NCBI GenBank assembly: GCA_021814615.1
Contig: JAKAHZ010000003.1
Coordinates: forward strand, 6,615 to 70,614
Length of the DNA stretch: 64,000 nucleotides
Source of the DNA: Nitrospirota bacterium
GTDB lineage: Bacteria > Nitrospirota > UBA9217
Direction of reading: 5' to 3'
Positions 603 to 63,724 of this stretch are shown in pieces; position 1 is the first letter of the stretch; each line of letters opens with the position of its first letter. The translations under genes and the position numbers were made by a program. Below the pieces are notes generated by a model. That model was given only the letters and a program-made list of their open reading frames with translations. It made no database searches and was not told the origin of the DNA.

Positions 603-1230
603 ACTGCGGCAGGACTACCGGAAGAAGCGGAAGCTGATCGAACGGCGTCTCGCGGAGTTCCGTCGGGTGTACGATCACGGCGACGAAGCGATTTTTCGGG
701 AGCTCTGCTTCTGCATTGTCACGGCGGGAAGCAGCGCGCGGATGGGATTCCGGACCATTGAACTTCTCGATGATCTGCTGCTGGATGGCACCGAACGGGA
801 GCTTCAGGAACGGGCTCGCGCAGGTCATGTGCGGTTCTGGCGCCTGCGGCCGTCCTATATCTGTCGGACACGGGAATACCTGCGGGAGACCTGCGGACTT
901 CGTCTCCGCGAGCTGTTCGATTCCTTCCGAACGGCGGAGGAACGCCGCGATTTCCTGGCGAAGAATAAGTCCATCAAGGGAGTGGGCTACAAAGAAGCCA
1001 GCCACTTCCTGCGGAACATCGGTTTTCGCGGGTATGCGATCCTGGATAAACATATCGTGAACAGCCTGCGGGAGATGGACATCATTCCCCCGCGGCTTAA
1101 ACCGACGACTCGGAGCGGCTATCTGGCCATCGAGCGGAACGTGGCCCAATTCTCGCGCGAGATAGGCATCGACATGGATCATCTGGACCTGCTGCTCTGG
1201 TCACGAAAGACCGGTGAAATCCTGAAGTGA
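577..1230 (+). CDS. ogg: 8-oxoguanine DNA glycosylase/AP lyase, archaeal-type Ogg2 (HhH-GPD)
   Basis: Motifs RELCFCIVTAGSSA, IKGVGYKEASHFLRNIGFRGYAILDKHIV and LDLLLWSRKTGEILK closely parallel M. jannaschii-type Ogg. GTG 577 is the only in-frame start near the homology and overlaps the rhodanese stop by 26 nt; the 370-576 part of the tracked ORF is rejected. Confidence 0.85.
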   Translation: MDGSTIIRELRQDYRKKRKLIERRLAEFRRVYDHGDEAIFRELCFCIVTAGSSARMGFRTIELLDDLLLDGTERELQERARAGHVRFWRLRPSYICRTREYLRETCGLRLRELFDSFRTAEERRDFLAKNKSIKGVGYKEASHFLRNIGFRGYAILDKHIVNSLREMDIIPPRLKPTTRSGYLAIERNVAQFSREIGIDMDHLDLLLWSRKTGEILK

Positions 1231-1266
1231 GGAAGAGGCCGTTCCGAGGCATGTGAAGGAGAACCC

Positions 1267-1563
1267 ATGACGGATAAGGGATTCCGGAGAACAATAATAC
1301 TGAGCGCTGTCGCCGGAGCGGTCGTTACCCTGGGAGCCGCGTTTGCCATGGACTATCTTCTGGCAGATTCGCTCCACGGCACGTGGCGTGACGCTGCGGC
1401 CAAGGACGTGACGCGGATGTTCGGACCACGCTGCGGCCAGAATCCTTTCGCCGTGGGGATTGTTCTTGTTGCGGTCATGGGTTTTCTCGCGGCCTTCGGC
1501 GCCGCCATGGGAGCCATCGGCGGAGCGATTATCAGCAGGTTCTTTCGCATGTTATTGAAGTGA
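1267..1563 (+). CDS. Small hypothetical membrane protein (2 predicted TM helices)
   Basis: ATG with GAAGGAG RBS (1254-1260). Two hydrophobic Gly/Ala-rich segments. No recognised domain. Confidence 0.5.
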   Translation: MTDKGFRRTIILSAVAGAVVTLGAAFAMDYLLADSLHGTWRDAAAKDVTRMFGPRCGQNPFAVGIVLVAVMGFLAAFGAAMGAIGGAIISRFFRMLLK

Positions 1564-1686
1564 CGGATGGTAGAACTGGTAATACGTAGCGGATTTTTCT
1601 GCAGGGAAAGCTTGAGCGGTAAGACGAAAGCGTTCATGTTGAGAGGTGCTGCATTAGTAGCAAGGAGTTTTTTTAACAAATAATAG

Positions 1687-1715: not shown

Positions 1716-2011
1716 GAACCATATTCTAATAATTAATTTATAATTACAAGTATTTATGCTTTTCTACCTCGTTAATCATATATATGAATAAGCTCCAGAT
1801 CTTTTGATTTTATATTGCCGTGGCGTTAGAAAATGATGCGATTTTCCGGAAGGTATGTGCCTCTAATTATCTGCGAGAACAAGTAAATATTGTAAGTGAT
1901 GTTCGTAAACCAACAGCGGTATGAGCACTATCACTCAATTTAATGATCAATAATCTTAATGATACGTAGTATTTATATATTAACTTATTGAATTATTAAA
2001 TTATTGACGCA

Positions 2012-2027
2012 TGGTATGCATATTGCA
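2012..2027 (+). promoter_or_regulatory. Candidate sigma54 (RpoN) -24/-12 promoter
   Basis: TGGTATGCATATTGCA versus consensus TGGCACG-N4-TTGCW. The GG and GC dinucleotides are separated by exactly 10 nt. Lies 81 nt upstream of ATG 2108. Confidence 0.5.
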
Positions 2028-2107
2028 AAATAATGTCAGCGAATCAACATGCGTTCGGTGATGCTGATCCGATGCTTAATGCATAACTCGTTGTAAAAGA
2101 GGGGAAA

Positions 2108-2944
2108 ATGAAGATCAACAAGGGTATGGTTGTGCTTACGTCTGTTGTGATAGCCTGTGCTCTTTTGAGCATGGTCGGTAGCGCATATGCTCTCTCAATT
2201 GTCGGGAGTAAGCACGATTTTTCCGATTCTCCGAGAAATCCTACCGATCCCGGATATACAAACTTTGCCGGCATTTTTTATACCGTAGTTAATGGTTCTC
2301 CCTTTTATATAAATGAAGTTTGTGTTTTTTGTCATACGCCCCATGGTGCATCGAAGGGAAACGCGGACGCGGAACTGAACCAATTCCTCTGGAACCGCGT
2401 GAATTCTCCCAATTACAACTCCACGTTCACTTATCAAATGTATTCCAGCTCGTCTATGTCGGCGACGCCGAATCCGACCGGCCCGACAGGCGTCAGCATG
2501 ATGTGCATGAGCTGTCACGATGGCATCACGTCAATCGCTGCAAATTACAACAACGATTCCCTGAAACCCACGCTCATGAACGCCCCCGGATCCGGTAATC
2601 CGGTCGTTGCGGTCGATCCCATGCTCGGAACGCCTCCGGGCGCAATTTACAATGCTTACGCTGGCGGTATTACCGGATGGGGGCCGAACATCGGCGATGC
2701 TACTCCGACGATCAATCCGAAGGTGATCAACCTGTCGAACGATCACCCGATTTCCTTTGAATGGCCGAACGGGATGACAACCGAACTGCAGCTCCCGACG
2801 GACCCCAGATTGCGCCTTTTCGGCACGTCGAAGAAGCGGGTGGAATGCGCCACCTGTCACAATGTGCATGATCCGGCGATTCCGCCGTTCCTGGCAATGG
2901 ACAACAGCTACAGTCTTATGTGCAGACAGTGCCATATTAAATAA
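2108..2944 (+). CDS. Secreted tetrahaem cytochrome c (doubled-CXXCH type)
   Basis: Signal peptide, four CXXCH motifs (CVFCH, CMSCH, CATCH, CRQCH) and exactly four additional His (SKHD, TPH, NDHP, NVH), compatible with bis-His ligation of four haems. RBS AGAGGGGA. Confidence 0.9.
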   Translation: MKINKGMVVLTSVVIACALLSMVGSAYALSIVGSKHDFSDSPRNPTDPGYTNFAGIFYTVVNGSPFYINEVCVFCHTPHGASKGNADAELNQFLWNRVNSPNYNSTFTYQMYSSSSMSATPNPTGPTGVSMMCMSCHDGITSIAANYNNDSLKPTLMNAPGSGNPVVAVDPMLGTPPGAIYNAYAGGITGWGPNIGDATPTINPKVINLSNDHPISFEWPNGMTTELQLPTDPRLRLFGTSKKRVECATCHNVHDPAIPPFLAMDNSYSLMCRQCHIK

Positions 2945-3025
2945 ATAATTGAAGTCTCGGTCCGAAGTTCTGGAACAAGGCTCTTCGGTGCCTGGGAAGC
3001 TGATGACGCGCTCTCGGAGGTGTGT

Positions 3026-5842
3026 ATGAAGATGTTTAAAACGTTGATCCTTGTGATGGCTATACTCGCGGTTGTGTGCAGCGCGGCGGTTGCTGCTCCC
3101 TACCGGCTGGCATCCATCACCGACAGCATCATGAATCCGGTGCGCGTTGCCGTCGACTCCCAGGGGAACATGTATGTAACGAACGACGGCAAGGTGGTCA
3201 AGTACAATAACAAGTGGCAGATGGTAAGTTCCTTTGCCGTGACCGAGCCGCTCGGTGTCGCAGTCGACGCTGCCGGAAATATTTACGTCGGTTCCGGCAC
3301 CGCGGTAAACATCTACTCTCCTGCCTTTACGCTCATCGGCACTCTTGGCGCCGGCGCGGGTGAGTTCTCCAAGGCCAGCGACATCACCGTCGGCACGGAC
3401 GGACGGATTTACGTCGCCGACACGGAAAATCATTTTATCAAGGTCTATGACGGCACGACGAGGGCGAAGATCCTGTCAATCGGCGGGTATAGCAGTGTTG
3501 TCCCGACTCCTGCCGGAAAGCTGCGGCGGCCTTTTGGCGTTGCGGTGAATGATGCCACGAACGAGGTTTACGTTGTTGATTATCCGACCATTGTCATCAA
3601 CCTGGTGAATACCGACGGCGCCCGCATCTCGGTTTTCCATAAGGACGGCGTCTTCGACCGGTCCTACGGGACCTTCGGCTCCGGCGTCGGCCAGATCGCA
3701 TCGCCGATGGATATCGCCATCGACAACAGCGGCATTCTCTATGTGACAGACTCCTATCAACAGGTTTGTCACACCCTGAGCCCGGTCGATGGAACTCCCG
3801 TGGGGGCCGGCGGTCTTTACGATCCGAACATGCATCTCTATAATCCCATGGGCGTCGCCGTCGGAAAGAACGGCCTCGCCTACATAGTATCGAACAGGAG
3901 CACCGGCGGAAACGGTCGGGTCGATATTTATGCGCTCGACGGCTTCGTAACCATGTCGACCGCGCCGTCGGCGCTTTCCTTCCAGGCAACTCAGTACAGC
4001 ACAAACCCGGCTGCCCAGGATGTGACCATTACGAACAGCGGCAGCGGAACGGTGAGCTGGACGGCATCGGCGGATCAGCCCTGGATCCTCCTGAGCAAAG
4101 CATCCGGCACGGTGCTGCCGGCCGGTCAGGCGCCGTCGACGGATGTGCTGTCCGTCGGTGCGGACATTTCGAACCTCATTCCCGGCGCGTATTCGGGTTC
4201 GGTCACCATTGATTCCGGTTTCGGCCAGAAAGATACTATTTCCGTGACGCTCTCGGTCGTTCCTGCGCCGACGCTCGTGACGAACGGCACGATGAATCTT
4301 TCGACAACAAAGGGTAACAGCCCGGCAGCGCAGCCGGTCACGATCAGCGCCACCAACGTGATCTCGCCGCTGACGTGGAGCGCCTCGCCGAATGTCGCTT
4401 GGCTTGCGATCTCGCCAGCGTCGGCGGTGATTAATCCCGCATCTCCGAGTTCCTCGGCAATGATGTCAGTGAACGCAACGGGGATGGCGGTCGGTTCGTA
4501 CAGCGGCGTGATCACCATTACCGCTCCCGGAGCGCTGACGAGCGCTAATATTACGGTGAACCTGCGGATCGATGCGTCCTCGAAGATCACGGTCACGACG
4601 AATTCAGCCGACGCCCGGTTTACGGTCAACAGCGCGGGTGCGTCGTATAGCGGCTCCGGCCTCGCCTGGAGCGTGGAGAATGCTCCTGCCGGTGACTACA
4701 CGGTAATGTTCGACGCAGTCTCCGGTTTCAAGCGGCCCGTTTCTCAGACCATGACGCTTGCCGACGGCGGACAGCTTGCCTTCTCCGGCAACTATGTGTC
4801 TTACCTCGATCTGGCTGCGAAGAAGAATATTGTCGCCGCGAAGGGGCCTGACGCATCCAATGATTCGCTGGTTCGCGTCTTCAACCGGAATAGCGGCACC
4901 TTGATCGCATTTGACCTCGTTGCGCTTGCCTCTCAGTATGGAGCAAACGTTGCTGTGGGCGATATCGACGGTGACGGATCTGCCGAGCTCGTCGTCGGCA
5001 CGGGCGGCGGCCAGGGCAACGCTGCAACGGTCCGTGTTTTCCGGACCGACAAGACGCCGGTCCTCGAATTTACACCCTTCGCGTCACAGAACGGCGTCCA
5101 GGTTGCAGTCGCTGACCTGAACGGCGACGGCAAAGCAGAAATCATCGTTGCATCGGCTGGCGGTGCCGATGTTGGAACCGTTGCCGTGTATACCTATGAC
5201 TCGGCAACCCAGGCCATGGTGCCGACGGGGATTTCCTTTGCCGGGTTCAGCAATGGCACGAATGTGGCCGTGGCGGATACTGAAGGCGACGGCAGGCCGG
5301 AGATCGTCGTGGCTCCCGGGTTCAGCAAACAGAACGCAGGCACTGTCCGCATCTGGAAGTCCGATGTCTCCGGTTCGGTGGGCAGCTGGACTGCAGTCAT
5401 GGTGAAGGAGATGACCCTGTCCGATTCCTATGGCGCGACAGTCTCCGCTGGTGATGTCGATAACGACGGGAAGGATGAGATCATCATCGGAACGGGTGGA
5501 GCTTCGGGATCTAAGGCGACGATCTCGATCATGAAAGCGGATGGTACTCAGGTCGCCAAGTTCAAGGCTTTCGACAAATACGGCGTGAACATCGCTGCGG
5601 CCGACCTTGATGGCGACGGCAGCGTCGAGATCGTTGCGGCTCAAGGTATGGATTCCGGTGAGCAGAATACCCCGGGTAATACAAAGCTGAAGGGCAAGTC
5701 GCCGGTAACCGGCGCGGCGCCGGACCGCGGTTTGGTGCGGGTGTTCAGCGCTTCGGGCGAACAGAAGTTCTCGTTCACGGCCTTCGATAATGCATCTTCG
5801 CAATTCGGCGTCAATCTGGCGGTCGGTGATCTTGGTCTGTAA
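3026..5842 (+). CDS. Secreted multidomain protein: NHL-repeat beta-propeller + 2 BACON-like Ig domains + PEGA-like domain + FG-GAP/VCBS beta-propeller
   Basis: Signal peptide MKMFKTLILVMAILAVVCSAAVA. NHL-type repeats (GVAVDAAGNIYV, DITVGTDGRIYVAD, GVAVNDATNEVYVVD, DIAIDNSGILYVTD, GVAVGKNGLAYIV). SWTASADQPWILLS and LTWSASPNVAWLAIS blocks. FG-GAP blades GDIDGDGSAELVVG, ADLNGDGKAEIIV, ADTEGDGRPEIVV, GDVDNDGKDEIIIG, ADLDGDGSVEIVA. GGAGG RBS 8 nt before ATG 3026. Confidence 0.9.
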   Translation: MKMFKTLILVMAILAVVCSAAVAAPYRLASITDSIMNPVRVAVDSQGNMYVTNDGKVVKYNNKWQMVSSFAVTEPLGVAVDAAGNIYVGSGTAVNIYSPAFTLIGTLGAGAGEFSKASDITVGTDGRIYVADTENHFIKVYDGTTRAKILSIGGYSSVVPTPAGKLRRPFGVAVNDATNEVYVVDYPTIVINLVNTDGARISVFHKDGVFDRSYGTFGSGVGQIASPMDIAIDNSGILYVTDSYQQVCHTLSPVDGTPVGAGGLYDPNMHLYNPMGVAVGKNGLAYIVSNRSTGGNGRVDIYALDGFVTMSTAPSALSFQATQYSTNPAAQDVTITNSGSGTVSWTASADQPWILLSKASGTVLPAGQAPSTDVLSVGADISNLIPGAYSGSVTIDSGFGQKDTISVTLSVVPAPTLVTNGTMNLSTTKGNSPAAQPVTISATNVISPLTWSASPNVAWLAISPASAVINPASPSSSAMMSVNATGMAVGSYSGVITITAPGALTSANITVNLRIDASSKITVTTNSADARFTVNSAGASYSGSGLAWSVENAPAGDYTVMFDAVSGFKRPVSQTMTLADGGQLAFSGNYVSYLDLAAKKNIVAAKGPDASNDSLVRVFNRNSGTLIAFDLVALASQYGANVAVGDIDGDGSAELVVGTGGGQGNAATVRVFRTDKTPVLEFTPFASQNGVQVAVADLNGDGKAEIIVASAGGADVGTVAVYTYDSATQAMVPTGISFAGFSNGTNVAVADTEGDGRPEIVVAPGFSKQNAGTVRIWKSDVSGSVGSWTAVMVKEMTLSDSYGATVSAGDVDNDGKDEIIIGTGGASGSKATISIMKADGTQVAKFKAFDKYGVNIAAADLDGDGSVEIVAAQGMDSGEQNTPGNTKLKGKSPVTGAAPDRGLVRVFSASGEQKFSFTAFDNASSQFGVNLAVGDLGL

Positions 5843-5906
5843 TCAGGAGCAACGGGGAGTGCAATACAAGAGGATCCGTATAATGCAGGCGGAAGGAGCA
5901 GTGATT

Positions 5907-8900
5907 ATGAAGAGATCTACTAAGTTCATGATTTCCGGATTGATTGCCTTGATCGGTATGCTGATTGCCGCGCAGGGCGCATATGCCGTTCTCGATCCGC
6001 CGCATAACGGCTATGATACTCGCTTCTACACCGTGGCATGTTCGCGGTGTCATTATGACACGACGACATCCAGCACCCCGTCCTGGATGACTGCGCCGAC
6101 TGATACGGATCATACGCTCCTGAACAATCTGTGCACGGACTGCCACTCGGTTAGCAAGCTTTCGGGTGTCAAGTACGACGATATCAACACCCATTCCAGC
6201 GGGAACACCTCGAATACCTACGGCGACTGGTCAATTGAATGCCGTGTCTGTCACAATCCCCATGCCCAGGTGCAAACAACAGGCGCCACGGCAAATGCCG
6301 ATCCGACGGATAATGTCGTCTCCGGGCTCGTGTCCGCCGTTGCTTCGTCAGTAGGTTTCACCACATCTGCCATTACGGTGAGCGGCGTTTCCCTGACGTT
6401 GGATTACACGAATTATGCCTTGATCCCGAACACGCTGTATCCGACACGTATTTATCGTATCGCTTCGAACACGACCGGCCAAATCACGGTGTACGGGCTG
6501 ATCAACAGGAATTACGCCGGAGCGGGCAAAACCTTTGCAATTCGGTACGGCAAACTCGTTAATGATACCATCACAACGCCGAACTATGGTGGAGTGTTTC
6601 CCGTCAAGTTCTATGCGCCGGTCGGACCGAACTCCTTCGGTACGAGCACGAATCCCGCGAACGTTACCGGCGTCTGCCAGGTCTGTCATACGCAGACCCA
6701 GTCCTTCAACCGGACTGGGACAGTCGGCGCAATCCAGGAAGGTGTCGGTCATCCTGGTAATGTGGCAGGCGTGCAGAATTGCACAGAATGCCATACCCAC
6801 AAGTCGGGATTCAAAGGTGGTGGTTGTACCTCCTGCCACGGCAACCCGCCGGTGGATCAGACAACGCTCGTGTACGGATCAGCGAACGGCAACAATCCCG
6901 CTCTTCAGACGGGATCGCAGACCGCTGGCGCACACCAGACCCATGTGAGCAGTCTAGCCTATGGTTGCACGACGTGCCACACCGGTGGTATGCCGGTTTC
7001 CGCCATTGATACTTCCAAACAGCTTCAGATGGGTTTCTCCGGCGGCGGCATGTACTACGGCAGACCTACGCTCTCGAACGGCTATACCTATCAGGCCGGA
7101 AACGTGACCACCGTAATCTCTACCACCGGTCCGGCAATGAGCTGTACCACGGTTTATTGCCATAGCAACGTGCAGAATCCGGCAACGGGCTCCGGCGGGC
7201 CGAGTTCCTACGGCAATCCGCAGTGGAGCGGAGCGGTGGTCTGCGGCGACTGCCACAAGGCTGGCACTGCCATGGACACCGGCAGCCACGCACAGCATGT
7301 GGGCACTGCCGGCTACTCGATGCCCTGCTCCAACTGCCACCTGAACGCGGGTGACGGAACCCCGATTCACGTCAACAATGTTATCAATGTGAACTTCGAT
7401 GCTGCAGTCGCGGGCAGCGGCGCGTACAACGGTTCGAACAGCAGCCCGAACAATCATGCTCCCGGTCAGGGTTACGGCAACTGCTCTTCGGTCTATTGCC
7501 ATGGCAACTTCACCGGCGGCGCCGCAGCAACGCCCACGTGGGGGAATGCCGCAACCGGCGATTGCGGAACCTGCCACGGCGCTTCTTCGGCAACTCCGCC
7601 GACAGGCGGATCGCACGGCCTCCATGCAGGCGGGAATTATGCTTTCGGCTGCCAACTCTGCCACTATTCCGTGATTACGACGGGCACGACTATCGCCAAT
7701 AAGACGCTGCATGCCGATCACAGCACGAACTGGCAGTTCAGCACTGCTGATCCTCGAACCAACGGCGCTCAGTACAACGGCGCCACATCGGGTGCGAACG
7801 CCAGTGTGGGAACGAACTACGGCGGATGCACCAATCTCTACTGCCACAGCCAGGGGCAGTCGACGACCGCGTCGGCTGATGCGCCGAATTCGCCTCCCAC
7901 CTGGGGTGTAGCGCTTCCGTCGGATTGCACGGGTTGTCACGATGCTGACAAGAACGCTGCGAGCAAGATGCACACCGGTTCGCATACCGCCCACGTATCG
8001 AGCAGCAACCACACCTGTAATCTCTGTCATAGTACGACGGTCGCTACTGCTTCGATGTCGATCTCGACCGCCGCGAACCATGCAAACCGGAAGGTCAACA
8101 TCGCCTTCACATCGCTGAACACGGGTGGACTGGTCGGTGGCTTGACCTCGACGGCAAAGGATCCGGGTACAGCGCCGGTTTCCTGCACAAATCTCTACTG
8201 CCACGGCGGCGGTAGCCCGACATGGAGCACGGGCAACGGTTCACTTTCTTGCGGCAGTTGCCACAAGGCAAGCAGCACGCTCGCCGGCAAGCACAGTATT
8301 CACTATGGCGTGACCACTACAGCGACAAACGCAGAAAAAACGGCTGCGAATAACTCGACAACGACCGCCTATGTGTTCACGTGCGGCGTTTGCCATGACT
8401 CCACGCAGACCACTCATGCCGGCGGAGCGGTCAGCACCTGGCAGGCCGCTGAGGTCAAATTCGATGCAACCGTGGCCGGTGGCGGCAATCCTTACACGGG
8501 CCGCACGGTGACTGCGGGTGTTGACAGCAACTTCAACTGGACCGGCGGCCAGCCGGGGACTTGCGGGACCACATATTGCCATAGCGCGGGTACTGCTTCT
8601 TCGGCGCCCTACAGCCCACCGTTCTATACCAGCTTCACGTGGACAGGGCCGACCTTCGATTGCGGCAGTTGCCATGGCGGCGCTCCCGGCGCGAGCAGCG
8701 TAATCGCGTCGAATGTGCACGGCGGTCATATCAACGATACGGCGAACCGCGTGGGACGAAACGTCTCCTGCACAGAATGTCACAATGCTACGGCATCGAG
8801 CACGACCGTAGTCGGCACGAAATCAAACCATGTGAACCATCTCGTCAATATCAAGTTCAACAATGCCGGCGGCATCAACCTGGACAGCGACGCACCTGCT

Positions 8901-10652
8901 TATAATGGACAGGCGACGACGGTTGCAACGGGTGCTACGAAAACTCCGGGGACTGCCGGATACAATTGTTCCAATGTGTACTGCCATAGCATCGGCAACC
9001 TTTCGGGCACCGGCGGAACGATTATTGCTGCCGGCGGCGCGAGCTTCCGGACGCCGACATGGACTGCCGTCGGTGCTCTGGATTGCGATAATTGCCACGG
9101 CAACCAGGCGGGCAAAGCCTATCCGACGTATGCCAGCGGCGCTCCGGGCAGCGGCACGGAGAACAGCCACGTGACCCACGTGGAAGGTTCCGGCTACACC
9201 TGTAACTTCTGCCACGTCGCCACCACGATCTCGACGACGATCACGGCAGGAACGATGACCCTGATCCCCGGCGGCAGGCACCTGAACCGCACCGAGGATG
9301 TGGTGTTCGCCACCTACCAGTCCAAGTCGGGCGTGTACAACCCCGGCGCGAAGACCTGTTCGGCCACCTACTGCCACGGCGGCGGGACGCCGACGTGGGG
9401 CGCCAACGGGACGGTCACCTGCGGCAGCTGCCATCTGAACACCACGGGCGGCGACGTGAACGACTATACGTACAACAACGGCTCCCTGGCCCTGATCAGC
9501 CAGGCGGAATGGACCACGTCGGGCCACGGCCGCTCGGCAGCCTCGGGCAGCTATACGCAGACGCTCAACGGACCTGCCAACTTCCCGACCATGGCGGGCA
9601 CGGGCGACCCCTGCCAGTACTGCCATACGACCGGTGTGACCCACGGTAACGCGACCAACATCTTCCGTTTGCGGAGCTTCACCAGCGGCTCCGTGCTCGG
9701 CATGAACCAGGTCTGCTTGAACTGTCATGAGACCGGGGCCACCGGCGTGAATCCCTTCAGCGGCACGAGCCAGACGGTAAACGGCGTAAGCAAGGTGGAC
9801 AAGTGGCACTACGGGACGCAGCACTCCGCCGCGCTGAACGGCGGCCAGTTCTGCTGGGATTGCCATGAACCGCACGGCGACATGGGCATCGGCGCCCTGG
9901 GCCCGATCGCGATGATCCAGTCGCGGCCCGTCATGTCGTCCGACGCGACGACCGGCAAGCCGATGACCATCGTGTCCACGACGGTCACCTTCACGAGCCG
10001 GAGCGCTGGCTCCAGCTACGGCACGGCGACGGCGCCCTACGACAGGATCTGCAACGTCTGCCATACCTACAACCCGACGAACCCGAGCAAGATGGTCCAC
10101 TACACGACCACGACTTCGGATAACCACAACTCGGGCACGGTCTGCACGAGCTGCCATAAGCACAGCGGCAACACGACCAATGACGGCGATGCCTTCAAGG
10201 GCGGCGCCTGCAACGGCTGCCACGGCTATCCTCCGATGGCCGGCGACGGCAACGCCTATATGATGGTGAACGGCGTGTCCGTGACGGTCTTCGAAGGCAA
10301 GGGCGGCTGGTCGGCGGCAACGGGCAGCGGCGGCCATAAGGCTCATATCGACCACCTCATCAGCCTGACGGGGTTAACGTTGAACCCGAGTACGGACAGC
10401 TTCACGGGTCCGAACGTGGCGGTGCTTTGCGGTACCTGCCACGACATGACGGTGGGCAACCACAGCACCGACGGCAACGGCACCCGGAATATCAACTTCA
10501 ATTCCGGTCTGACGTATTCCTTCGGGACGGCTGTCCAGAAGTACAACGGCATCCCGGGTGTGTCCTCGACGGTTGCGCCGAAGACCTGCTCGAACGTGAG
10601 CTGCCACTATAAAGAATCGCCGCGGTGGCAGGATCCGGCGATCACGAACTAG
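5907..10652 (+). CDS. Giant secreted multihaem cytochrome c (1581 aa) with Geobacter-type CxxxxCH...CXXCH repeat modules
   Basis: ATG 5907 follows GGAAGGAG (5891-5898), then signal peptide MKRSTKFMISGLIALIGMLIAAQGAYA. Hand count gives 27 CXXCH and 8 CX4CH (CTTVYCH, CSSVYCH, CTNLYCH x2, CGTTYCH, CSNVYCH, CSATYCH, CSNVSCH). CHGNPP and CHGYPP motifs near both ends. Confidence 0.9.
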   Translation: MKRSTKFMISGLIALIGMLIAAQGAYAVLDPPHNGYDTRFYTVACSRCHYDTTTSSTPSWMTAPTDTDHTLLNNLCTDCHSVSKLSGVKYDDINTHSSGNTSNTYGDWSIECRVCHNPHAQVQTTGATANADPTDNVVSGLVSAVASSVGFTTSAITVSGVSLTLDYTNYALIPNTLYPTRIYRIASNTTGQITVYGLINRNYAGAGKTFAIRYGKLVNDTITTPNYGGVFPVKFYAPVGPNSFGTSTNPANVTGVCQVCHTQTQSFNRTGTVGAIQEGVGHPGNVAGVQNCTECHTHKSGFKGGGCTSCHGNPPVDQTTLVYGSANGNNPALQTGSQTAGAHQTHVSSLAYGCTTCHTGGMPVSAIDTSKQLQMGFSGGGMYYGRPTLSNGYTYQAGNVTTVISTTGPAMSCTTVYCHSNVQNPATGSGGPSSYGNPQWSGAVVCGDCHKAGTAMDTGSHAQHVGTAGYSMPCSNCHLNAGDGTPIHVNNVINVNFDAAVAGSGAYNGSNSSPNNHAPGQGYGNCSSVYCHGNFTGGAAATPTWGNAATGDCGTCHGASSATPPTGGSHGLHAGGNYAFGCQLCHYSVITTGTTIANKTLHADHSTNWQFSTADPRTNGAQYNGATSGANASVGTNYGGCTNLYCHSQGQSTTASADAPNSPPTWGVALPSDCTGCHDADKNAASKMHTGSHTAHVSSSNHTCNLCHSTTVATASMSISTAANHANRKVNIAFTSLNTGGLVGGLTSTAKDPGTAPVSCTNLYCHGGGSPTWSTGNGSLSCGSCHKASSTLAGKHSIHYGVTTTATNAEKTAANNSTTTAYVFTCGVCHDSTQTTHAGGAVSTWQAAEVKFDATVAGGGNPYTGRTVTAGVDSNFNWTGGQPGTCGTTYCHSAGTASSAPYSPPFYTSFTWTGPTFDCGSCHGGAPGASSVIASNVHGGHINDTANRVGRNVSCTECHNATASSTTVVGTKSNHVNHLVNIKFNNAGGINLDSDAPAYNGQATTVATGATKTPGTAGYNCSNVYCHSIGNLSGTGGTIIAAGGASFRTPTWTAVGALDCDNCHGNQAGKAYPTYASGAPGSGTENSHVTHVEGSGYTCNFCHVATTISTTITAGTMTLIPGGRHLNRTEDVVFATYQSKSGVYNPGAKTCSATYCHGGGTPTWGANGTVTCGSCHLNTTGGDVNDYTYNNGSLALISQAEWTTSGHGRSAASGSYTQTLNGPANFPTMAGTGDPCQYCHTTGVTHGNATNIFRLRSFTSGSVLGMNQVCLNCHETGATGVNPFSGTSQTVNGVSKVDKWHYGTQHSAALNGGQFCWDCHEPHGDMGIGALGPIAMIQSRPVMSSDATTGKPMTIVSTTVTFTSRSAGSSYGTATAPYDRICNVCHTYNPTNPSKMVHYTTTTSDNHNSGTVCTSCHKHSGNTTNDGDAFKGGACNGCHGYPPMAGDGNAYMMVNGVSVTVFEGKGGWSAATGSGGHKAHIDHLISLTGLTLNPSTDSFTGPNVAVLCGTCHDMTVGNHSTDGNGTRNINFNSGLTYSFGTAVQKYNGIPGVSSTVAPKTCSNVSCHYKESPRWQDPAITN

Positions 10653-10685
10653 ATCTCCGGAAAACGCAAGCAGCCTGAACGATCA

Positions 10686-10719
10686 CGGCACGAGGGTTCG
10701 ACCCTCGTGCCGTTTTTTT
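10686..10719 (+). terminator. Rho-independent terminator of the cytochrome operon
   Basis: CGGCACGAGGG-TTCG-ACCCTCGTGCCG perfect stem followed by TTTTTTT, 34 nt after the stop codon. Confidence 0.8.
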
Positions 10720-10765
10720 ATCTGCACTTGGAAGGGGACTTTTTATTCGTCGGTGCGTTTCCCTG

Positions 10766-11017
10766 GTGGTACAATCTCTTCAGCGACCACAAATTCAGGA
10801 GACACCGTGTGAAGAAAGGACCGTTGAGCTCTTCGACCGAAGGGGGACCATGTTCGAAATCGCCACGGACAACGGCGAGGTTCGGTTGTTGGTCGTGTCC
10901 GGGAAACCTCTCAACGAACCGGTTGCATGGTGCGGGCCGATCGTGATGAATACCGAAGAAGAGCTCAGAACCGCTTTCGAGGAATACCGGAATGGCACGT
11001 TCATCAAGAACCGCTGA
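10766..11017 (+). pseudogene. Pirin family C-terminal remnant (about the last 55-70 codons only)
   Basis: RLLVVSGKPLNEPVAWCGPIVMNTEEELRTAFEEYRNGTF matches the conserved pirin C-terminus (GePlnEPv..yGPFVMNt.eEi.qA..Dy..G.f). There is no room upstream for the ~230 missing N-terminal codons. Confidence 0.6.
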
Positions 11018-11444
11018 TTCGTTCACGGCCCTGGCGCTTGTCCTTTTCCTCTTCCCGCCGTATGCACTGGCTGCCGGGAAACCGGTCATCAAAGCGGATT
11101 GTCAGATCAGCGAACATCCCTGCACAAAGACCACCGACGGGTTGACTGCGACGCTCGAGATCACGCCGAGACCGGTCAGGGACATGCGGGAGCTGGTGTT
11201 CACGGTTTTTCTGTCCCAGGGCAGCAAAGCGGTTACCGATGCGAAAGTCGCTGTGGACCTGACCATGCCGGATATGATCATGGGACAGAACCTCGTGCGG
11301 ATGGCGCACAAAATGCAAGGCATTTATGCGGGGAAGGGAGTGATCGTGCGATGCCCCAGCGGCAAAAAGCTCTGGAGGGCCGAGGTCCGGGCGCACCGCG
11401 GGAAGAAAACGATCGTCGTGCCGTTTCTGTTCGAGGTCCGATAA
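10992..11444 (+). CDS. Secreted YtkA/FixH-like domain protein (metal-ATPase associated)
   Basis: Signal peptide. The block VAVDLTMPDMIMGQNLVRMAHKMQGIYAGKG resembles the MPxMxMG motif of YtkA/FixH-like domains. Sits upstream of the P1B ATPase. Confidence 0.6.
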   Translation: MARSSRTADSFTALALVLFLFPPYALAAGKPVIKADCQISEHPCTKTTDGLTATLEITPRPVRDMRELVFTVFLSQGSKAVTDAKVAVDLTMPDMIMGQNLVRMAHKMQGIYAGKGVIVRCPSGKKLWRAEVRAHRGKKTIVVPFLFEVR

Positions 11445-11460
11445 CGGCGTTGGAGTCTGC

Positions 11461-12132
11461 ATGGAGACAGGGTACGTTTTTGCTTTCACCACCGGCCTTG
11501 CCGGCGGGTTCGGCCACTGCATCGGCATGTGCGGGCCGCTCGCGGCGTCTTTTTCCGTTCAGGGGAAACGCTCGCCCCCTTCTGTCGTGATCGGCAGGCA
11601 GCTCCTGTATCATGCGGGCCGCGTAACCACCTATGCCCTGATCGGCGCTGTCATGGGATACGCCGGCTCCTTCGTGAATGTCGCGGGAAGTCTCATGGGC
11701 GTCCAGAACAGCGTCATGATCCTTGCTGGGGTGCTGATGGTCGCCATGGGACTCGGCATCGCCGGCCTGATCGGCGGCACGGCCTGGATCGAGCGTCACA
11801 ACGCAGGCGTGCTCGGGGCGGCAAGACGCGTGATAGCGCATCCCTCCGGCCTGCGCAACTTTCCTCTCGGACTGTTGATGGGCCTGCTGCCCTGCGGTTT
11901 GTCCTATACATCCTTCATCGCTGCTGCCGGGACAGGCTCTCCGGTTTCCGGCATGATGTTGATGCTCGCCTTCGGCTGCGGCACCGTGCCCGCGCTCGCG
12001 GCCTTCGGCGCTGCTGCGGGGTATGTCGGATCTCGGCTGCGGGGCAGGGTTCAGCAGGCGGGAGGCCTGCTCGTCCTTGCCATGGGTTTGTACTACATCG
12101 TGAAGGGAATCAGGCTGTATGCCGAAATGTGA
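11461..12132 (+). CDS. Polytopic membrane protein, DsbD_2 / TauE-SafE-like (HCxGMCGP motif)
   Basis: GGFGHCIGMCGPL near the N-terminus and about six TM helices. Overlaps the ATPase start by 14 nt. Confidence 0.75.
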   Translation: METGYVFAFTTGLAGGFGHCIGMCGPLAASFSVQGKRSPPSVVIGRQLLYHAGRVTTYALIGAVMGYAGSFVNVAGSLMGVQNSVMILAGVLMVAMGLGIAGLIGGTAWIERHNAGVLGAARRVIAHPSGLRNFPLGLLMGLLPCGLSYTSFIAAAGTGSPVSGMMLMLAFGCGTVPALAAFGAAAGYVGSRLRGRVQQAGGLLVLAMGLYYIVKGIRLYAEM

Positions 12133-14665
12133 CCACTGCCTGATCGAATTTCCCGAGCGCGATGCGGTGCATGACGAGATCAGGGGCGAGGCGCGGGTTT
12201 TCTGCTGCCATGGGTGCCAGGGCGTCTATCGGCTCATCCACGATGAAGGGCTCGATGATTTCTACCGCAAGCGCGCAGGCTGGCTGCCGGGACCGGTCTT
12301 GGAACAGACGATCGATCTCGCGGCATTCACCGGCAGCGTCCGGACCGTGGAAAAGGAACTTTGCGAGACGGATATCATGCTCGATGGCATTCGTTGCGCA
12401 TCCTGCGTCTGGCTGAACGAAAAGGTCCTGGAACGTACGCCGGGCATTTTCTATGCCCGCGTCAACTATGCAACCCACCGCGCCCGCATCCGCTGGGATC
12501 CTGCGACCACGGGTCTGGCTGCAGTTCTCGGACGCATCACTTCCATCGGATACACACCCAAACCCTTTTCAGAACGCGCATACGAGGAGGAGCAGCGGAA
12601 GCTCAGCCGTGACCTCCTGATCCGATTCGGCACCGCCGCTTTTTTCTCCATGCAGCTCATGCTTTTCTCCGCGGCGCTTTATGCCGGCTACTTCCAGGGC
12701 ATCGATCCGGCCCTCAGGAGCCAGTTCCAGTGGATCTCGCTGGCCATGACCACGCCGGTGCTCTTCTATTCCGGTTGGCCGTTCTTCGCCTCGGCTCTGC
12801 GGGGACTGCGCCACGGCGCTTTCACCATGGACGTGCTGATCGTGGCCGGGGCAGGGTCCGCCTACATCTACAGCATGTTCCAGATGGCTGCCGGCGGCGA
12901 GGTCTATTTCGATACGTCGGCCATGATCGTCACCCTCATCCTCCTGGGCCGATATATCGAATCAGGAGCGAAGCGCAAGGCATCGGAGTCGTTGACGCGT
13001 CTGTTGTCGCTCTCGCCGCCCGGGGCAAGGCTGCTCGAGGCGGGTCCGGACGGCAGCATCGCTGCCGCGCATCGGCGTATGACGACGATCGGATCGGTCA
13101 AGCCCGGCGACCTGGTCGAGATCCTTCCCGGAGAGCAGGTGCCGCTTGACGGCATTGTTGCCGACGGCGCATCGGAAGTGGACGAGTCGATGCTGACGGG
13201 AGAATCGCTGCCGGTGCAAAAGACGCCGGGGGCGGAGGTCTTCGGCGGCACGAGAAACCTCATGGGCAGGATTGTGTTCGAAGTGACGAGGACGGGAGAC
13301 GAGACCGTTCTCTCCCGTATCGTTCGAGCGGTCGAGGATGCCCAGGCGCGTCGCGCGCCGGTCCAGGCGGCAGCGGACCGGTTCGTCGGATTGTTTGTCC
13401 CGCTTCTGATCCTGTCCGCTGTCGCCACGGCCGGTTTCTGGCTCTTCCGGGGGAGCGGGTTGTCGGCTGCCGTGATGCATGCCGTCTCGGTGCTCGTCAT
13501 TGCATGCCCCTGCGCCCTGGGCCTGGCAACGCCGCTCGCAATCCTTGTCGGCACCACCTACGGCGTAAGCCGCGGGATCCTGATCAAAGGCGGCGATGTG
13601 ATTGAACGGGCGAAGGATATCGACACGGTTGTCTTCGACAAGACCGGCACGATCACCGAAGGAAGGCCGCTGCTCGTGTATGCTCGCGGGATCGGGATCG
13701 ATGACGCGCGGGCGATACGCCTTGCCGCGTCGCTGGAACGATATTCGGAGCATACCATCGGCAAGGCGATTGTCGAAGGGGCAAAGAGTGAAGAACTCTT
13801 TGCGGTGCAGGATTTCAGCGCAGCGCCGGGAGCGGGCGTTCGGGGAATCGTCGAGGGGAGCATGGTAAAAGTAGGGACGAGGGAATTCGTAAAGATTGGA
13901 CGGGGAGAGGAATACGGACAAGGGGACAAAGAGACCCGGCGCCAAGGGGAAAAAGACAGACGCGGAGACACGGAGACGCGGGAATACCGAGTGCAAGACG
14001 GACAAGGCGACAATGCGACCAAGGGACAAGGCGAGAAGGGTCAAGAACTAGAAGGCCTCAGGGAAGGGGAACGGGCCGGAACGACGGTTGTCTATCTGTC
14101 GATGGACGGGATGCTTGCCGGCGTTTTCGGCATCTCCGATCCTGCAAGGCAGGATGCATCGGGAGTCGTGAAAACGCTGGAATCCACCGGGATGCATATC
14201 GCGATGATCACGGGCGATGCGCAGGGAACGGCGGAAGCGGTGGCCGAAAGGGTCGGCATAACTTCGGTTATGGGCAGGCGGACACCGGTGGAGAAGGCGG
14301 AAGAACTTCAGGCGCTTCGTTCCCGAGGCAGGCATACGATCATGGTTGGCGACGGGATCAATGATGCGCCTGCGCTGATCGAAGCCGACGTGGGCATTGC
14401 CGTCGGCAAGGCGACGGATATTGCCCTTGAGAGCGCCGACATCGTTTTGCTCAGAAACGACTTGCGCCTCGTGCCGCTCAGCATTGCCCTGGCAAAGAAG
14501 ACCTATGCGGTGATCCGGCAGAACCTCTTCTGGGCATTTTTCTATAACATTGTCGCTATCCCGCTGGCCGTGACGGGCGTTCTCCATCCCATTGTGGCGG
14601 CCGGCGCCATGGCACTGAGTTCGCTCAGCGTGGTAGGCAATTCACTCCGGGCGAGGGTGAAGTAA
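12119..14665 (+). CDS. Heavy-metal (Cu-type) P1B ATPase, FixI/CcoI-like, with a low-complexity insertion
   Basis: N-terminal CDHC...CCHGCQGVYRL metal-binding domain, TGES, CPC (IACPCALGLATP), DKTGTITEG, MITGDAQGTA, GDGINDAPAL. Confidence 0.9.
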   Translation: MPKCDHCLIEFPERDAVHDEIRGEARVFCCHGCQGVYRLIHDEGLDDFYRKRAGWLPGPVLEQTIDLAAFTGSVRTVEKELCETDIMLDGIRCASCVWLNEKVLERTPGIFYARVNYATHRARIRWDPATTGLAAVLGRITSIGYTPKPFSERAYEEEQRKLSRDLLIRFGTAAFFSMQLMLFSAALYAGYFQGIDPALRSQFQWISLAMTTPVLFYSGWPFFASALRGLRHGAFTMDVLIVAGAGSAYIYSMFQMAAGGEVYFDTSAMIVTLILLGRYIESGAKRKASESLTRLLSLSPPGARLLEAGPDGSIAAAHRRMTTIGSVKPGDLVEILPGEQVPLDGIVADGASEVDESMLTGESLPVQKTPGAEVFGGTRNLMGRIVFEVTRTGDETVLSRIVRAVEDAQARRAPVQAAADRFVGLFVPLLILSAVATAGFWLFRGSGLSAAVMHAVSVLVIACPCALGLATPLAILVGTTYGVSRGILIKGGDVIERAKDIDTVVFDKTGTITEGRPLLVYARGIGIDDARAIRLAASLERYSEHTIGKAIVEGAKSEELFAVQDFSAAPGAGVRGIVEGSMVKVGTREFVKIGRGEEYGQGDKETRRQGEKDRRGDTETREYRVQDGQGDNATKGQGEKGQELEGLREGERAGTTVVYLSMDGMLAGVFGISDPARQDASGVVKTLESTGMHIAMITGDAQGTAEAVAERVGITSVMGRRTPVEKAEELQALRSRGRHTIMVGDGINDAPALIEADVGIAVGKATDIALESADIVLLRNDLRLVPLSIALAKKTYAVIRQNLFWAFFYNIVAIPLAVTGVLHPIVAAGAMALSSLSVVGNSLRARVK
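13901..14080. repeat. Intergenic-type word repeat embedded in frame in the ATPase CDS
   Basis: ACGGACAAGGGGACA (13914-13928) is identical to 16224-16238. CAAGGGGAAAAAGACA (13943-13958) matches CAAGGGGAAAAGACA (16245-16259). AGACGCGGAG (13958-13967) matches GACGCGGAG (16272-16280). Translates to GRGEEYGQGDKETRRQGEKDRRGDTETREYRVQDGQGDNATKGQGEKGQELEGLREGERAG. Confidence 0.55.
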
Positions 14666-31377: not shown

Positions 31378-32557
31378 GTTGCTGCTGCAGCCGGTCCAGG
31401 AGATCGAAGTAGGCCTGTCTGCAGCGGTTCTCGGCATCGGCCATCCTGGCAAAGGCCTCGCCGAAACCGGTCCTCCCGGCGGCAAAGATCCCGTGGCCAT
31501 AGACGATGCAGACGCCCTGGCCGGCGATCGCCTGCGGCACGGATTTCGCCAGGCCGCCGGTTCCCGTTTCCCCCGCGACGACGGGGATGCCGGCCACGGA
31601 CCGCTTCCGGTCGCAAAACCGGTTGCAGTCCTTGACGGCGCAGTCCTTTTCCTCGCAGAACATGGACATAATCACGCTGAACTTGGGATGGCCGTGCAGG
31701 ATGGCCCGAAAATCCGTTGCCCGGTAGATCGCCCGGTGAGCGGGAAGCTCCGAGGATGCGGAGAGGCCGGCGGTGGACGAGTAGTCGAGGGGCACCGGAT
31801 CGATGTGGCCTTCCAGCTCGTCAAGCGACGATGCCGTCTGGCTGATATGGATCGTCGTTCCGTCGAAGTAGCTGATATTGCCGAAAAAGGAGTCCACGAA
31901 GCCCTTTTCCACCGTATACCTGCCGACGCGGCAGATTTCGCCGCGGATCGCATCGCGGATAGGCGGAAGCTCGCCGCTGAAGGAAAGACCGGACAAATCG
32001 GATTCCTTCAGCCAGTTCCGGCGAAAATCCGCGAAGGCTTCACGCTCGCCGGGAAACCGAAACCCTTCGGTCAACAGATCCAGCAGGTACTTGACGAAGG
32101 TGGTGTGGAAGATGGTGGAGAACCCGATGAAGGCCTGCTCCACGGTGACCGCGCCGGTGGCGACAACGCCCAGATCCTCGATAATGACCGCTTTTCGCTC
32201 CTTGAGGCTCTCGATGATCAACGGCGCACGTCCGGCCGGCGGACGATCCTCCCAGTCCGAACGCCTGATAAAGGGGATGTCATGCAGGAACACGCGGGTC
32301 TCGCTGTCGTTGGGCACGAGCTTGCTGTTGGCGGGGCCGGCGCGGCGGATCAGGAGGTCGGCAAAGGGAAGGCTGGTTCTGGCAAAGCAGATCGCCGTGA
32401 TGTCCAGGCCGCCGAAGACCTGGGTGAAGAGCGGCGTCCACTCGTCCTGGGCGCTGGCGGTAACCGCATCATCGAGCCGGAAGAACCGGATGCTTGCGGG
32501 ATCTGCAGTCCCGTCGCGCAGGAGCTTGGCGGTGTATTTGGCGAACTGATCGGTCAT
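31349..32557 (-). CDS. Class II aldolase/adducin-domain protein with an uncharacterised N-terminal domain
   Basis: The C-terminal half has FFGNISYF, SSELPAHRAIY, ILHGHP and VYGHGIFAAG blocks of the class II aldolase fold. Its ATG overlaps the upstream stop (ATGA). Confidence 0.75.
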   Translation of the reverse strand: MTDQFAKYTAKLLRDGTADPASIRFFRLDDAVTASAQDEWTPLFTQVFGGLDITAICFARTSLPFADLLIRRAGPANSKLVPNDSETRVFLHDIPFIRRSDWEDRPPAGRAPLIIESLKERKAVIIEDLGVVATGAVTVEQAFIGFSTIFHTTFVKYLLDLLTEGFRFPGEREAFADFRRNWLKESDLSGLSFSGELPPIRDAIRGEICRVGRYTVEKGFVDSFFGNISYFDGTTIHISQTASSLDELEGHIDPVPLDYSSTAGLSASSELPAHRAIYRATDFRAILHGHPKFSVIMSMFCEEKDCAVKDCNRFCDRKRSVAGIPVVAGETGTGGLAKSVPQAIAGQGVCIVYGHGIFAAGRTGFGEAFARMADAENRCRQAYFDLLDRLQQQQKNPLTRNG

Positions 32558-34050: not shown

Positions 34051-34051
34051 G

Positions 34052-34660
34052 TCAGCCGAGAGCCTCTGCGGCGACCTTCTCCAGGGAAATGCCGTACCGG
34101 CTTTCGATGTGGTCAAAGAGGGCGCGAACCCGGCGGTGAGACCGGTCCACGGTAGCGAGGAATAAGGGATTATGGGGATAGCGCCTGGCGAGGGAGGCGA
34201 AGCGCGCGTCGATGGTCGTGGGCCGGTCGAGCTCCACCACGCTGTCGATCACGGGAATCATCCGCTCTTCGAGCGTGCGGGGAAGGAAGTCCCGGTCCGG
34301 AAGGCCGAATTGCAGGGCTTCCCGGCGCGAAAGGCCGCACTGAATGTGGCAGACGCAGACGAACGCTTCCCGGTGATGGCCGAGGGAGGACAGGAACCGG
34401 AAACCCTCCACGCCATGCAGGACGGGATCCTGGGTCTTGTGCCTGCCGATGTCATGCACCAGCGCGGCCACGCGCAGGAATTCCCGATCCACGGGGCTGC
34501 GATCAGCCAGCAGCTCGCCGGCCCGTTCGGCAACCCGCGCGGCGGCGCGGCAATGGCGTGTCCACAGCGCATCGCCGCCAAGGCGGTCAACAAGCGCGAG
34601 CGCTGCGGGGAAGGAGAGGCCCGTGCCGGGATGCTCTTCTTGAAGGAGCGGATTGTTCAT
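34052..34660 (-). CDS. HD-domain metal-dependent phosphohydrolase
   Basis: H...HDIGRH motif. Confidence 0.8.
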   Translation of the reverse strand: MNNPLLQEEHPGTGLSFPAALALVDRLGGDALWTRHCRAAARVAERAGELLADRSPVDREFLRVAALVHDIGRHKTQDPVLHGVEGFRFLSSLGHHREAFVCVCHIQCGLSRREALQFGLPDRDFLPRTLEERMIPVIDSVVELDRPTTIDARFASLARRYPHNPLFLATVDRSHRRVRALFDHIESRYGISLEKVAAEALG

Positions 34661-55449: not shown

Positions 55450-55491
55450 ACGGCCGGACCGTCGAAGTGTTCTCTTCGGCAGCCCGGCCGT
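55450..55491 (-). terminator. Hairpin terminator downstream of the 55643-55978 gene
   Basis: ACGGCCGG...CCGGCCGT long hairpin with flanking T/A runs. Confidence 0.45.
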
Positions 55492-55642
55492 CTTTTTCCC
55501 TGCTTGCAAAGACCCGAAGCTTTCCGCCCCCTCCTCGCGAAGGGTTTGGTCTTTCGGTGAACGCTTCTGTTAGTTCGAAGCTATCACCGGCTTCCGGAGA
55601 TGTCAAGCGCCTCTCTGTTCGCGGCCTGGAATCGCGTGCAGG

Positions 55643-63708: not shown

Positions 63709-63724
63709 TGGCACGGCCCTTGCT
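63709..63724 (+). promoter_or_regulatory. Near-perfect sigma54 -24/-12 promoter
   Basis: TGGCACGGCCCTTGCT versus consensus TGGCACG-N4-TTGCW. Lies 125 nt upstream of ATG 63849. Confidence 0.55.

Follow-up and report, generated by a model that had tools for sequence, protein, structure and literature searches.

The closest described systems to the locus analyzed here are the cytochrome nanowires OmcE and OmcS and the genes that accompany them. In both filaments, a histidine of one subunit ligates a haem of the next, which is part of what joins the subunits (PMC9473688; PMC12954529). Besides a large beta-barrel and further multihaem cytochromes, the accessory gene sets of OmcE and OmcS contain two beta-propeller lipoproteins. 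Genes for a large barrel and for a propeller lipoprotein are given as characteristic of OmcE clusters (bioRxiv 10.1101/2025.10.22.684050), and for OmcS, whose set is the osc cluster, OscE, OscF and OscG were proposed to act in nanowire secretion (PMC13194489). In Desulfovibrio ferrophilus IS5, NHL propellers are encoded and co-expressed with multihaem outer-membrane cytochromes and were proposed to stabilize the complex (PMC5815863). Very long single-chain cytochromes with CxxxxCH and CxxCH motifs (TIGR01904) were predicted to be 'nanowires' in Desulfuromonadia (PMC11492766). The OmcE family including its Nitrospirota members, propeller partners of wire-type or outer-membrane cytochromes and very long single-chain cytochromes are already known. 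Here, a 64-kb stretch of contig JAKAHZ010000003.1 from an uncultivated, probably groundwater-dwelling Nitrospirota bacterium was analyzed (the window, meaning the whole stretch), in which the genes for an OmcE-family tetrahaem cytochrome, a double-propeller protein and a giant multihaem cytochrome follow each other on the same strand.

Homologies, ligand conservation, domain architecture, operon signals and synteny statistics were determined for this three-gene unit, which covers positions 2012-10713 when its promoter motif and terminator are included (Table 1). Coordinates are window positions, and L and P numbers denote comparison loci and family representatives. The best explanation, which as a whole we hold with about even confidence, is that the unit forms one operon with a sigma-54-type promoter and three Sec-exported products, and that it serves as an extracellular or cell-surface electron-transfer module consisting of an OmcE-type wire, a single-chain haem wire and an adaptor. 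A preliminary description of the region had treated the tetrahaem cytochrome and the double-propeller protein as a two-gene unit. Both genes are real, and the third gene, for a 35-haem cytochrome, had been left out.

The first gene product is a member of the OmcE family, because its sequence, its ligand pattern and its fold agree on this point. It contains eight His in total, four of which belong to the haem motifs C72/C75/H76, C133/C136/H137, C247/C250/H251 and C272/C275/H276, and four of which lie outside of them (H36, H79, H213 and H254). In an alignment of 118 sequences, all haem Cys, all haem His, H36, H213 and H254 were invariant and H79 was conserved in at least 90%; judged from these homologues, the conservation of the ligands is far beyond chance. 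All four distal His were also invariant across subfamilies, including a Geomonas OmcE-like protein, and the same eight positions are listed as conserved in OmcE (bioRxiv 10.1101/2025.10.22.684050). When 177,635 distinct sequences of the Protein Data Bank (PDB) were searched, the sole matches were 7TFS (1.8e-18) and 9YUQ (6.9e-16). The former is the OmcE nanowire of Geobacter sulfurreducens (GSU0618), the latter, a 'putative multiheme cytochrome c' of 218 amino acids (aa) that is present in 16 chains, is taken here as the OmcE bundle of Desulfuromonas soudanensis. Both alignments extend to a common C-terminal CxxCH-x-K end. As in the two solved proteins, four CXXCH motifs and four distal His occupy aligned positions and the last haem motif is followed by two residues (CRQCHIK before the stop codon). 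The window protein is longer, with 278 aa versus chains of 232 aa and 218 aa, at about 28-30% identity.

The AlphaFold2 monomer model of the tetrahaem cytochrome has a mean predicted local distance difference test (pLDDT) score of 81. A Foldseek comparison of this model with the PDB gave 7TFS as the single significant match (E 7.6e-9; template modelling (TM) score 0.63, target-normalised), and no c3 or NrfB-type protein was among the PDB matches. A c3/NrfB-like periplasmic protein was rejected as the primary class, since the Pfam c3/c7 matches span only the last ~35 residues and a match in fold was not obtained. The nearest homologue of the window cytochrome is 55% identical. With this, the four haem motifs and four spare His, the terminal haem motif and the kinship to OmcE, as put forward in the preliminary description, were all recovered. 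The signal peptides that it had assigned to the first two proteins were likewise recognized, by inspection and in the AlphaFold2 models, as a hydrophobic N-terminal helix followed by an A-x-A site in each case.

The second gene encodes a protein of 938 aa with no haem motif, two Cys and four His. Pfam matches exceeded the curated cut-offs for NHL (66.3 bits, cut-off 20), BACON_2 (59.4, cut-off 25), FG-GAP (78.1, cut-off 22.1; E-value 4e-22) and FG-GAP_3 (91, cut-off 26.9; E-value 7e-26), and the AlphaFold2 model is all-beta with a pLDDT of 87.7. The FG-GAP propeller resembles that of integrin alpha: its PDB sequence matches are the Ca-binding blades of integrin alpha-IIb, and it carries DxDxDG loops, in which D646/D648/D650/G651 and D810/D812/D814/G815 are conserved. 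Unlike integrin alpha, the protein is bacterial and the propeller is fused to NHL and BACON domains; we know of no integrin-like partner. A disordered, lineage-specific insert is found in this propeller at aa 881-897. Of the domains named in the preliminary description, NHL, the two BACON-type domains and FG-GAP were confirmed by Pfam and AlphaFold2. The C-terminal GDLGL was recovered as well; in it, G934 is invariant and G937 is conserved in at least 90%. A PEGA-like domain was not supported: the PEGA hidden Markov model (HMM) did not match aa 515-600 even at E-values up to 10, and no Pfam family did so at a meaningful E-value. The label was rejected for aa 520-588, where a small beta-sandwich is all that is predicted. 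In Foldseek, the model of the 938-aa protein gave generic NHL propeller matches only. NCBIfam gave weak matches to a pallilysin-related adhesin family and to ScyF, and it holds no dedicated family for any of the three operon proteins.

A GGAGG is located 5 nucleotides (nt) before ATG 3026. The distance from the stop codon of the cytochrome gene is 81 nt to this ATG and 75 nt to GTG 3020, hence the spacing of 76 nt given before is slightly off. An exhaustive search yielded at least 85 collinear representatives of the double-propeller family at the 50%-identity level, each of 820-1010 aa. A CXXCH motif was present in none of these 85 representatives, and a lipobox-like motif in three. The Cys within the signal peptide of the window protein is missing in L001, L005 and L043; the A-x-A site is conserved. 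The OmcE and OmcS sets and the window are alike in that an NHL propeller gene lies beside a wire-type cytochrome. Unlike the propeller lipoproteins of those sets, the 938-aa protein has a signal of the signal peptidase I type, no conserved lipobox and four extra domains. The propellers of D. ferrophilus IS5 are described as consisting of NHL repeats only, whereas the NHL propeller of the window is fused to BACON and FG-GAP domains and is paired with a 35-haem protein.

The third gene product contains 27 CXXCH and 8 CX4CH motifs, i.e. 35 haem motifs, with seven CX4CH-CXXCH-CXXCH triplets. TIGR01904 matched in 7 stretches (2e-53) and PF09698 with 4.2e-19. Thr, Gly, Ser, Ala and Asn together account for 54% of the protein and charged residues are few; no solved relative was found among the PDB sequences. 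The giant cytochromes of the related loci form one orthologous family with a collinear N-terminal module, including the haem-free insert, in 11 loci, and with a variable number of repeats (12-46 haem motifs). No Pfam family matched the insert, and its use as a docking site is speculation. With the long cytochromes of Desulfuromonadia, the window protein shares tens of haems per polypeptide and repeated CX4CH/CXXCH units. It differs in that its family has an N-terminal module of its own with the haem-free insert of ~140 aa, and in that the gene directly follows the double-propeller gene. Three independent assemblies of the region (L081, L082 and L083) all end at the same point within the giant cytochrome, at locus position 17180, corresponding to window position ~9287. 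This shared break is presumably due to the triplet haem repeats. The gene is complete in the window.

For the analysis of gene order, a propeller-anchored scan of metagenome contigs was performed with generic FG-GAP peptides; of its 80 loci, only L088 proved to be truly related over the full length. Double-propeller loci were instead read via contig look-ups of the exact proteins, and 15 loci were readable. The giant cytochrome gene directly follows the double-propeller gene in 14 of these 15. Of 14 double-propeller loci, 10 have an OmcE-like gene as a neighbour, with divergent orientation in L172. The complete same-strand triad of tetrahaem cytochrome, double propeller and giant cytochrome was found in nine loci (the window, L001/L169, L005, L043, L085, L086, L170, L171 and L174), whose triad proteins are 31-55% identical. 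The preliminary description had made its proposal depend on conservation of the cytochrome-propeller pair in relatives, and the pair is conserved. It had assumed Desulfobacterota as the setting for such a search; the contigs with the order histidine kinase, rhodanese, Ogg, 98-aa gene and triad are labelled Nitrospirota (L001, L085, L086, L169 and L171; P0132, P0140 and P0087), which makes this the probable lineage of the window. Close relatives come from groundwater sites, for instance contig Hain_H41 in L085. Two metagenome-assembled genomes, GCA_027425695.1 and GCA_027348025.1, contain proteins identical to those of the window. Judged from identical lengths of the longest contigs, 11 further cytochrome and propeller pairs may also be co-located.

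In a separate count over 80 OmcE-like loci from many phyla, 65 had an NHL-propeller gene on the strand of the OmcE-like gene and no more than 1.5 kb away from it (median gap 170 nt). Together with the literature (bioRxiv 10.1101/2025.10.22.684050; PMC5815863), this agrees with the statement in the preliminary description that propeller genes accompany the omcS and omcE loci. The fused double-propeller form occurred in three of the 80 loci, all three from Nitrospirota, and two or more OmcE-like matches were present in 52.

The relation of the 938-aa protein to the canonical propeller lipoproteins can be read from L005 and L043. In both loci the triad directly follows a set of genes for a putative barrel (685 or 706 aa), a SurA-like peptidyl-prolyl isomerase, an NHL propeller with a lipobox (342 or 348 aa) and a 7-haem cytochrome. 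When compared over the full length, both lipoproteins share 37% identity with the NHL lipoprotein from an OmcE-type cluster of Geomonas (E 1e-65 to 1e-69), and canonical NHL lipoproteins, which are single-domain proteins of ~340-440 aa, are 37-54% identical to each other over the full length. The NHL domain of the window protein reaches 25-29% identity to them at E-values of ~1e-11. Because of this low identity and of the coexistence with true lipoproteins in L005 and L043, the 938-aa protein is an additional component and not the canonical propeller lipoprotein. BLASTP did not link the 685-aa putative barrel of L005 to the 678-aa barrel of Geomonas, so the term 'barrel' is based on composition and position in L005 and L043. 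In L043, which has two OmcE-like paralogues (7984-10798), one paralogue belongs to the canonical set and the other opens the triad, which has its own sigma-54-type element right after that set. In L005, a second OmcE-like paralogue (853-1575, minus strand) is also preceded by a sigma-54-type element.

Several signals mark the three genes as one transcription unit. The consensus TGGYAYN5TTGCW of sigma-54-type promoters has two matches in the window, with 0.13 expected. The core of the match in front of the cytochrome gene is invariant in a spacer alignment of five loci. In each related locus having the element, it is the sole match and is located 40-124 nt before the first gene of the module, which is the cytochrome gene in L001/L169, L043, L085, L171 and L174 and the propeller gene in L088 and L172. 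The dyad further upstream recurs 79-100 nt upstream of the promoter motif in L001/L169, L085 and L171, i.e. in the closest lineage only, and is a candidate binding site of a sigma-54 enhancer-binding protein. A Sigma54_activat protein was not found among the open reading frames (ORFs) of the window that were scanned. The gap between the first two genes contains no hairpin better than those of shuffled sequences (z = -0.85) and the terminator scan was empty there; an attenuator or terminator between the cytochrome and propeller genes was rejected on these grounds. No Rfam match (E ≤ 1) was obtained for a riboswitch or structured leader upstream of the cytochrome gene. The 544-nt spacer in that place (1564-2107) has a GC content of 33.5% versus ~59% for the window. 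Near-consensus sigma-70 hexamers at 1687-1715 within this spacer were rejected as a promoter. The stretch does not align with the related loci, and the hexamers are a probable chance match. The second match of the sigma-54 consensus in the window, TGGCACGGCCCTTGCT, is at 63709-63724 on the plus strand, near the window end.

Table 1. Features of the three-gene unit in the window, with strand and basis of assignment.
Feature	Position	Strand	Basis or remark
Dyad TGAGCACTATCACTCA (TGAG-N8-CTCA) in conserved block	1922..1937	+	only such site in 64-kb window
Sigma-54-type -24/-12 promoter motif TGGTATGCATATTGCA	2012..2027	+	81 nt before cytochrome ATG
OmcE-family tetrahaem c-type cytochrome	2108..2944	+	278 aa, Sec signal, 4 CXXCH and 4 distal His
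Secreted haem-free double-propeller protein	3026..5842	+	938 aa; same length from gene callers
Six-bladed NHL beta-propeller, aa 26-305	3101..3940	+	Pfam NHL 1.4e-18; PDB sequence matches to TRIM71 and TRIM2 NHL; Foldseek TM 0.80-0.86 to TRIM NHL
Two BACON-type immunoglobulin-like domains, aa 310-412 and 416-516	3953..4573	+	Pfam BACON_2, two stretches, 3.4e-16; beta-sandwiches in model
Small beta-sandwich, aa 520-588	4583..4789	+	AlphaFold2 strands
FG-GAP (integrin-alpha-like) propeller, aa 600-938, conserved DxDxDG loops	4823..5839	+	Pfam, PDB matches, model
Giant multihaem cytochrome	5907..10652	+	1581 aa (1589 aa from gene-caller start 5883), Sec signal
Haem-free insert of ~140 aa (aa 113-256), between haem motifs 3 and 4	6243..6674	+	conserved in 11/11 aligned giant-cytochrome orthologues
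Intrinsic terminator	10685..10713	+	13-bp stem, 9 GC pairs, then T-run; 33 nt past giant cytochrome stop

In the proposed mechanism, the tetrahaem cytochrome would carry four bis-His c-haems and, judged from its homology with the two solved OmcE nanowires, would most likely polymerise head to tail into an insulated haem wire, in which one distal His would ligate a haem of the neighbouring subunit. The total of eight His would suit ligation in cis as well as in trans. The 35-haem protein would act as a single-chain haem wire, built from an N-terminal module of three haems with the haem-free insert and the seven triplets that follow. The 938-aa protein, in which no redox cofactor motif is found, may be a scaffold or adaptor of elongated shape that mainly serves the giant cytochrome: its NHL end would hold a cytochrome, and its end with the BACON domains and the Ca-type loops of FG-GAP would hold the cell envelope or matrix. 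In this way the giant cytochrome would be positioned at the surface, and in loci with a tetrahaem gene it would also be coupled to the OmcE-type wire. The scheme assumes that the proteins are exported past the periplasm and that the tetrahaem cytochrome polymerises, it likewise assumes the direction in which electrons flow, and the binding partners and the cellular location are proposed from domain types and gene order.

That last point weighs against the scheme, as do several findings on the tetrahaem cytochrome. The low identity to OmcE is met within a very large family (1638 proteins at E ≤ 1e-3, and at least 571 confirmed OmcE-like stretches in the species-representative genomes scanned). 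The OmcE clusters of Desulfuromonadia are defined by a large beta-barrel and propeller lipoproteins, whereas the window locus has neither nearby: a large outer-membrane barrel or a propeller lipoprotein was detected neither in its 64 kb nor in the preceding 10 kb. OmcE homologues are regarded as likely wire formers only when both are close by, and the same authors point out that OmcE-like tetrahaem cytochromes are widespread and need not all be wires (bioRxiv 10.1101/2025.10.22.684050). Moreover, an OmcE-like gene is missing beside the double propeller in L087, L168, L088 and the P0148 locus, although all four keep the giant cytochrome and the P0148 locus shares the flanking synteny of the window; the tetrahaem cytochrome is therefore dispensable for the core pair. 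In L173, a giant cytochrome was not seen downstream of the double propeller. The lack of a barrel and a propeller lipoprotein, the caution about widespread OmcE-like proteins and the four loci without a tetrahaem gene would suit a non-polymerising tetrahaem protein, i.e. a small monomeric or capping cytochrome which shuttles electrons to or from the giant cytochrome, with the double propeller and the giant cytochrome as the core of the system. The lack of an attenuator after the cytochrome gene, by which a surplus of the subunit could be produced, points the same way. We regard this reading as somewhat unlikely, given that the sole solved relatives in sequence and structure are two bona fide filaments, that conservation extends to every ligand position and to the C-terminal haem motif, and that the positional orthologue in L005 and L043 sits in a canonical wire-type cluster.

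The role of the 938-aa protein can also be seen differently. The preliminary description had left open a function as scaffold, chaperone or surface anchor of the tetrahaem filament, in the manner of the OmcE and OmcS propellers, which would reduce the giant cytochrome to a mere electron partner. The frequent occurrence of NHL genes beside OmcE-like genes in many phyla, the listing of a propeller lipoprotein and a large barrel as OmcE-cluster genes (bioRxiv 10.1101/2025.10.22.684050), and the fact that the 938-aa gene is the only propeller gene nearby in the lineage of the window speak for such a factor. The Osc proteins proposed in OmcS secretion fit as well, although the available text does not say which of them are propellers (PMC13194489). 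Since the 938-aa protein is no orthologue of the canonical lipoproteins, belongs to a family in which a lipobox is rare, coexists through its homologues with canonical lipoproteins in L005 and L043, and, unlike the OmcE and OmcS propellers, tracks the giant cytochrome rather than the tetrahaem protein, being retained with it where the tetrahaem gene is absent, this assignment is probably wrong, and the corresponding explanation of the locus is quite improbable. Even less credit, to the point of being highly improbable, is given to a glycan-binding or adhesin-type surface protein for biofilm formation or mineral attachment, which would not contact a cytochrome directly and would be co-transcribed as both functions are needed together. 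BACON and FG-GAP are domains often seen as characteristic of proteins for glycan binding or adhesion, and the weak NCBIfam and generic Foldseek matches agree with this. However, the tight same-strand order, with gaps of tens of nt or overlaps, is kept down to 29% identity, and the adjoining giant cytochromes are a single orthologous family with a common N-terminal module.

A further reading is conceivable, which we consider unlikely: the double propeller and the giant cytochrome could form the end-piece (base or tip) of an OmcE-type wire, with the adaptor docking the 35-haem protein via its haem-free insert onto the terminal exposed haem and onto the envelope. According to the authors of bioRxiv 10.1101/2025.10.22.684050, the OmcE operons of Desulfuromonadia encode no end-piece candidate. 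If true, the end-piece reading would explain how wires of this type start, how they are anchored or how they meet minerals.

The locus ties an OmcE-family gene to partners, namely an NHL-BACON-FG-GAP adaptor family and cytochromes of 12-46 haems, for which an association with OmcE was not described in a limited literature search. The same search yielded no description of the fused NHL-BACON-FG-GAP family, of the near-obligate pairing of double propeller and giant cytochrome, of a stand-alone triad without barrel or lipoprotein, or of a conserved sigma-54-type element at such loci. To our knowledge, OmcE-type wires have been structurally characterised in Desulfuromonadia only. The compact three-gene module with its sigma-54-type promoter motif should be expressible and testable, and with the 938-aa protein the locus offers a concrete candidate adaptor between wire and cytochrome. 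The triad may serve as a genomic marker for extracellular electron transfer based on giant cytochromes in groundwater Nitrospirota. Should the tetrahaem protein not polymerise, the locus would help to tell wire-forming from other OmcE homologues.

The genes flanking the triad are housekeeping genes. Upstream, rhodanese, Ogg and the gene of a 98-aa membrane protein (1267-1563) are found and, farther away, an NtrY-like histidine kinase and a LysM protein; downstream follow YtkA, DsbD_2 and a P1B ATPase. The 98-aa gene and the downstream genes were rejected as parts of the module, because in L169 an ABC-transporter block stands between the 98-aa gene and the cytochrome gene, and because the downstream genes lie beyond the terminator and occupy other places in L085 and L086. 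The downstream set (10992-14665, plus strand) encodes a YtkA-like protein, a membrane protein with DsbD_2 and a P1B-type ATPase that carries ATPase-cat_bd and HMA domains at its N-terminus, begins just past the terminator and looks like a copper-handling or cytochrome-maturation set. In every syntenic locus, a histidine kinase with NtrY_N, HAMP and PAS domains is encoded ~2 kb upstream of the sigma-54-type element (L081 5909-8071; L085, L086, L169 and L171). No response regulator gene is visible beside this kinase in these five loci, and a regulatory tie between kinase and operon is possible.

Among 19 genes measured, the tetrahaem gene has the lowest GC content at third codon positions (GC3; 0.60 versus 0.67-0.91), and in L001 all three module genes are also lower in GC3 than the flanking genes. 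This may reflect horizontal acquisition or a codon bias from high expression. The locus L087 (1-9200), with a distant double propeller, a cytochrome of 2007 aa and no OmcE-like gene, adjoins genes for a glycosyltransferase, a sugar aminotransferase, a dehydratase, a methyltransferase, PMT_2/TPR proteins, ResB and CcsB. This neighbourhood resembles the glycosylation blocks that have been reported next to OmcE clusters in Geobacter.

Elsewhere in the window, an ORF of 520 aa at 32554-34116 (minus strand) has a coding-like GC3 of 0.71 and matches no Pfam family at E ≤ 1e-3. A cyclic di-GMP riboswitch of the c-di-GMP-I-GGC type (RF03167; 61.8 bits with a gathering score of 59, E 3.6e-12) was found at 55474-55559 (minus strand), directly upstream of an alpha/beta-hydrolase gene (54438-55406, minus strand). 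The S-adenosylmethionine synthetase encoded at 47605-48813 (plus strand) matches Pfam PF01941 (3e-152), which we take to be the archaeal-type family and not the usual bacterial MetK.

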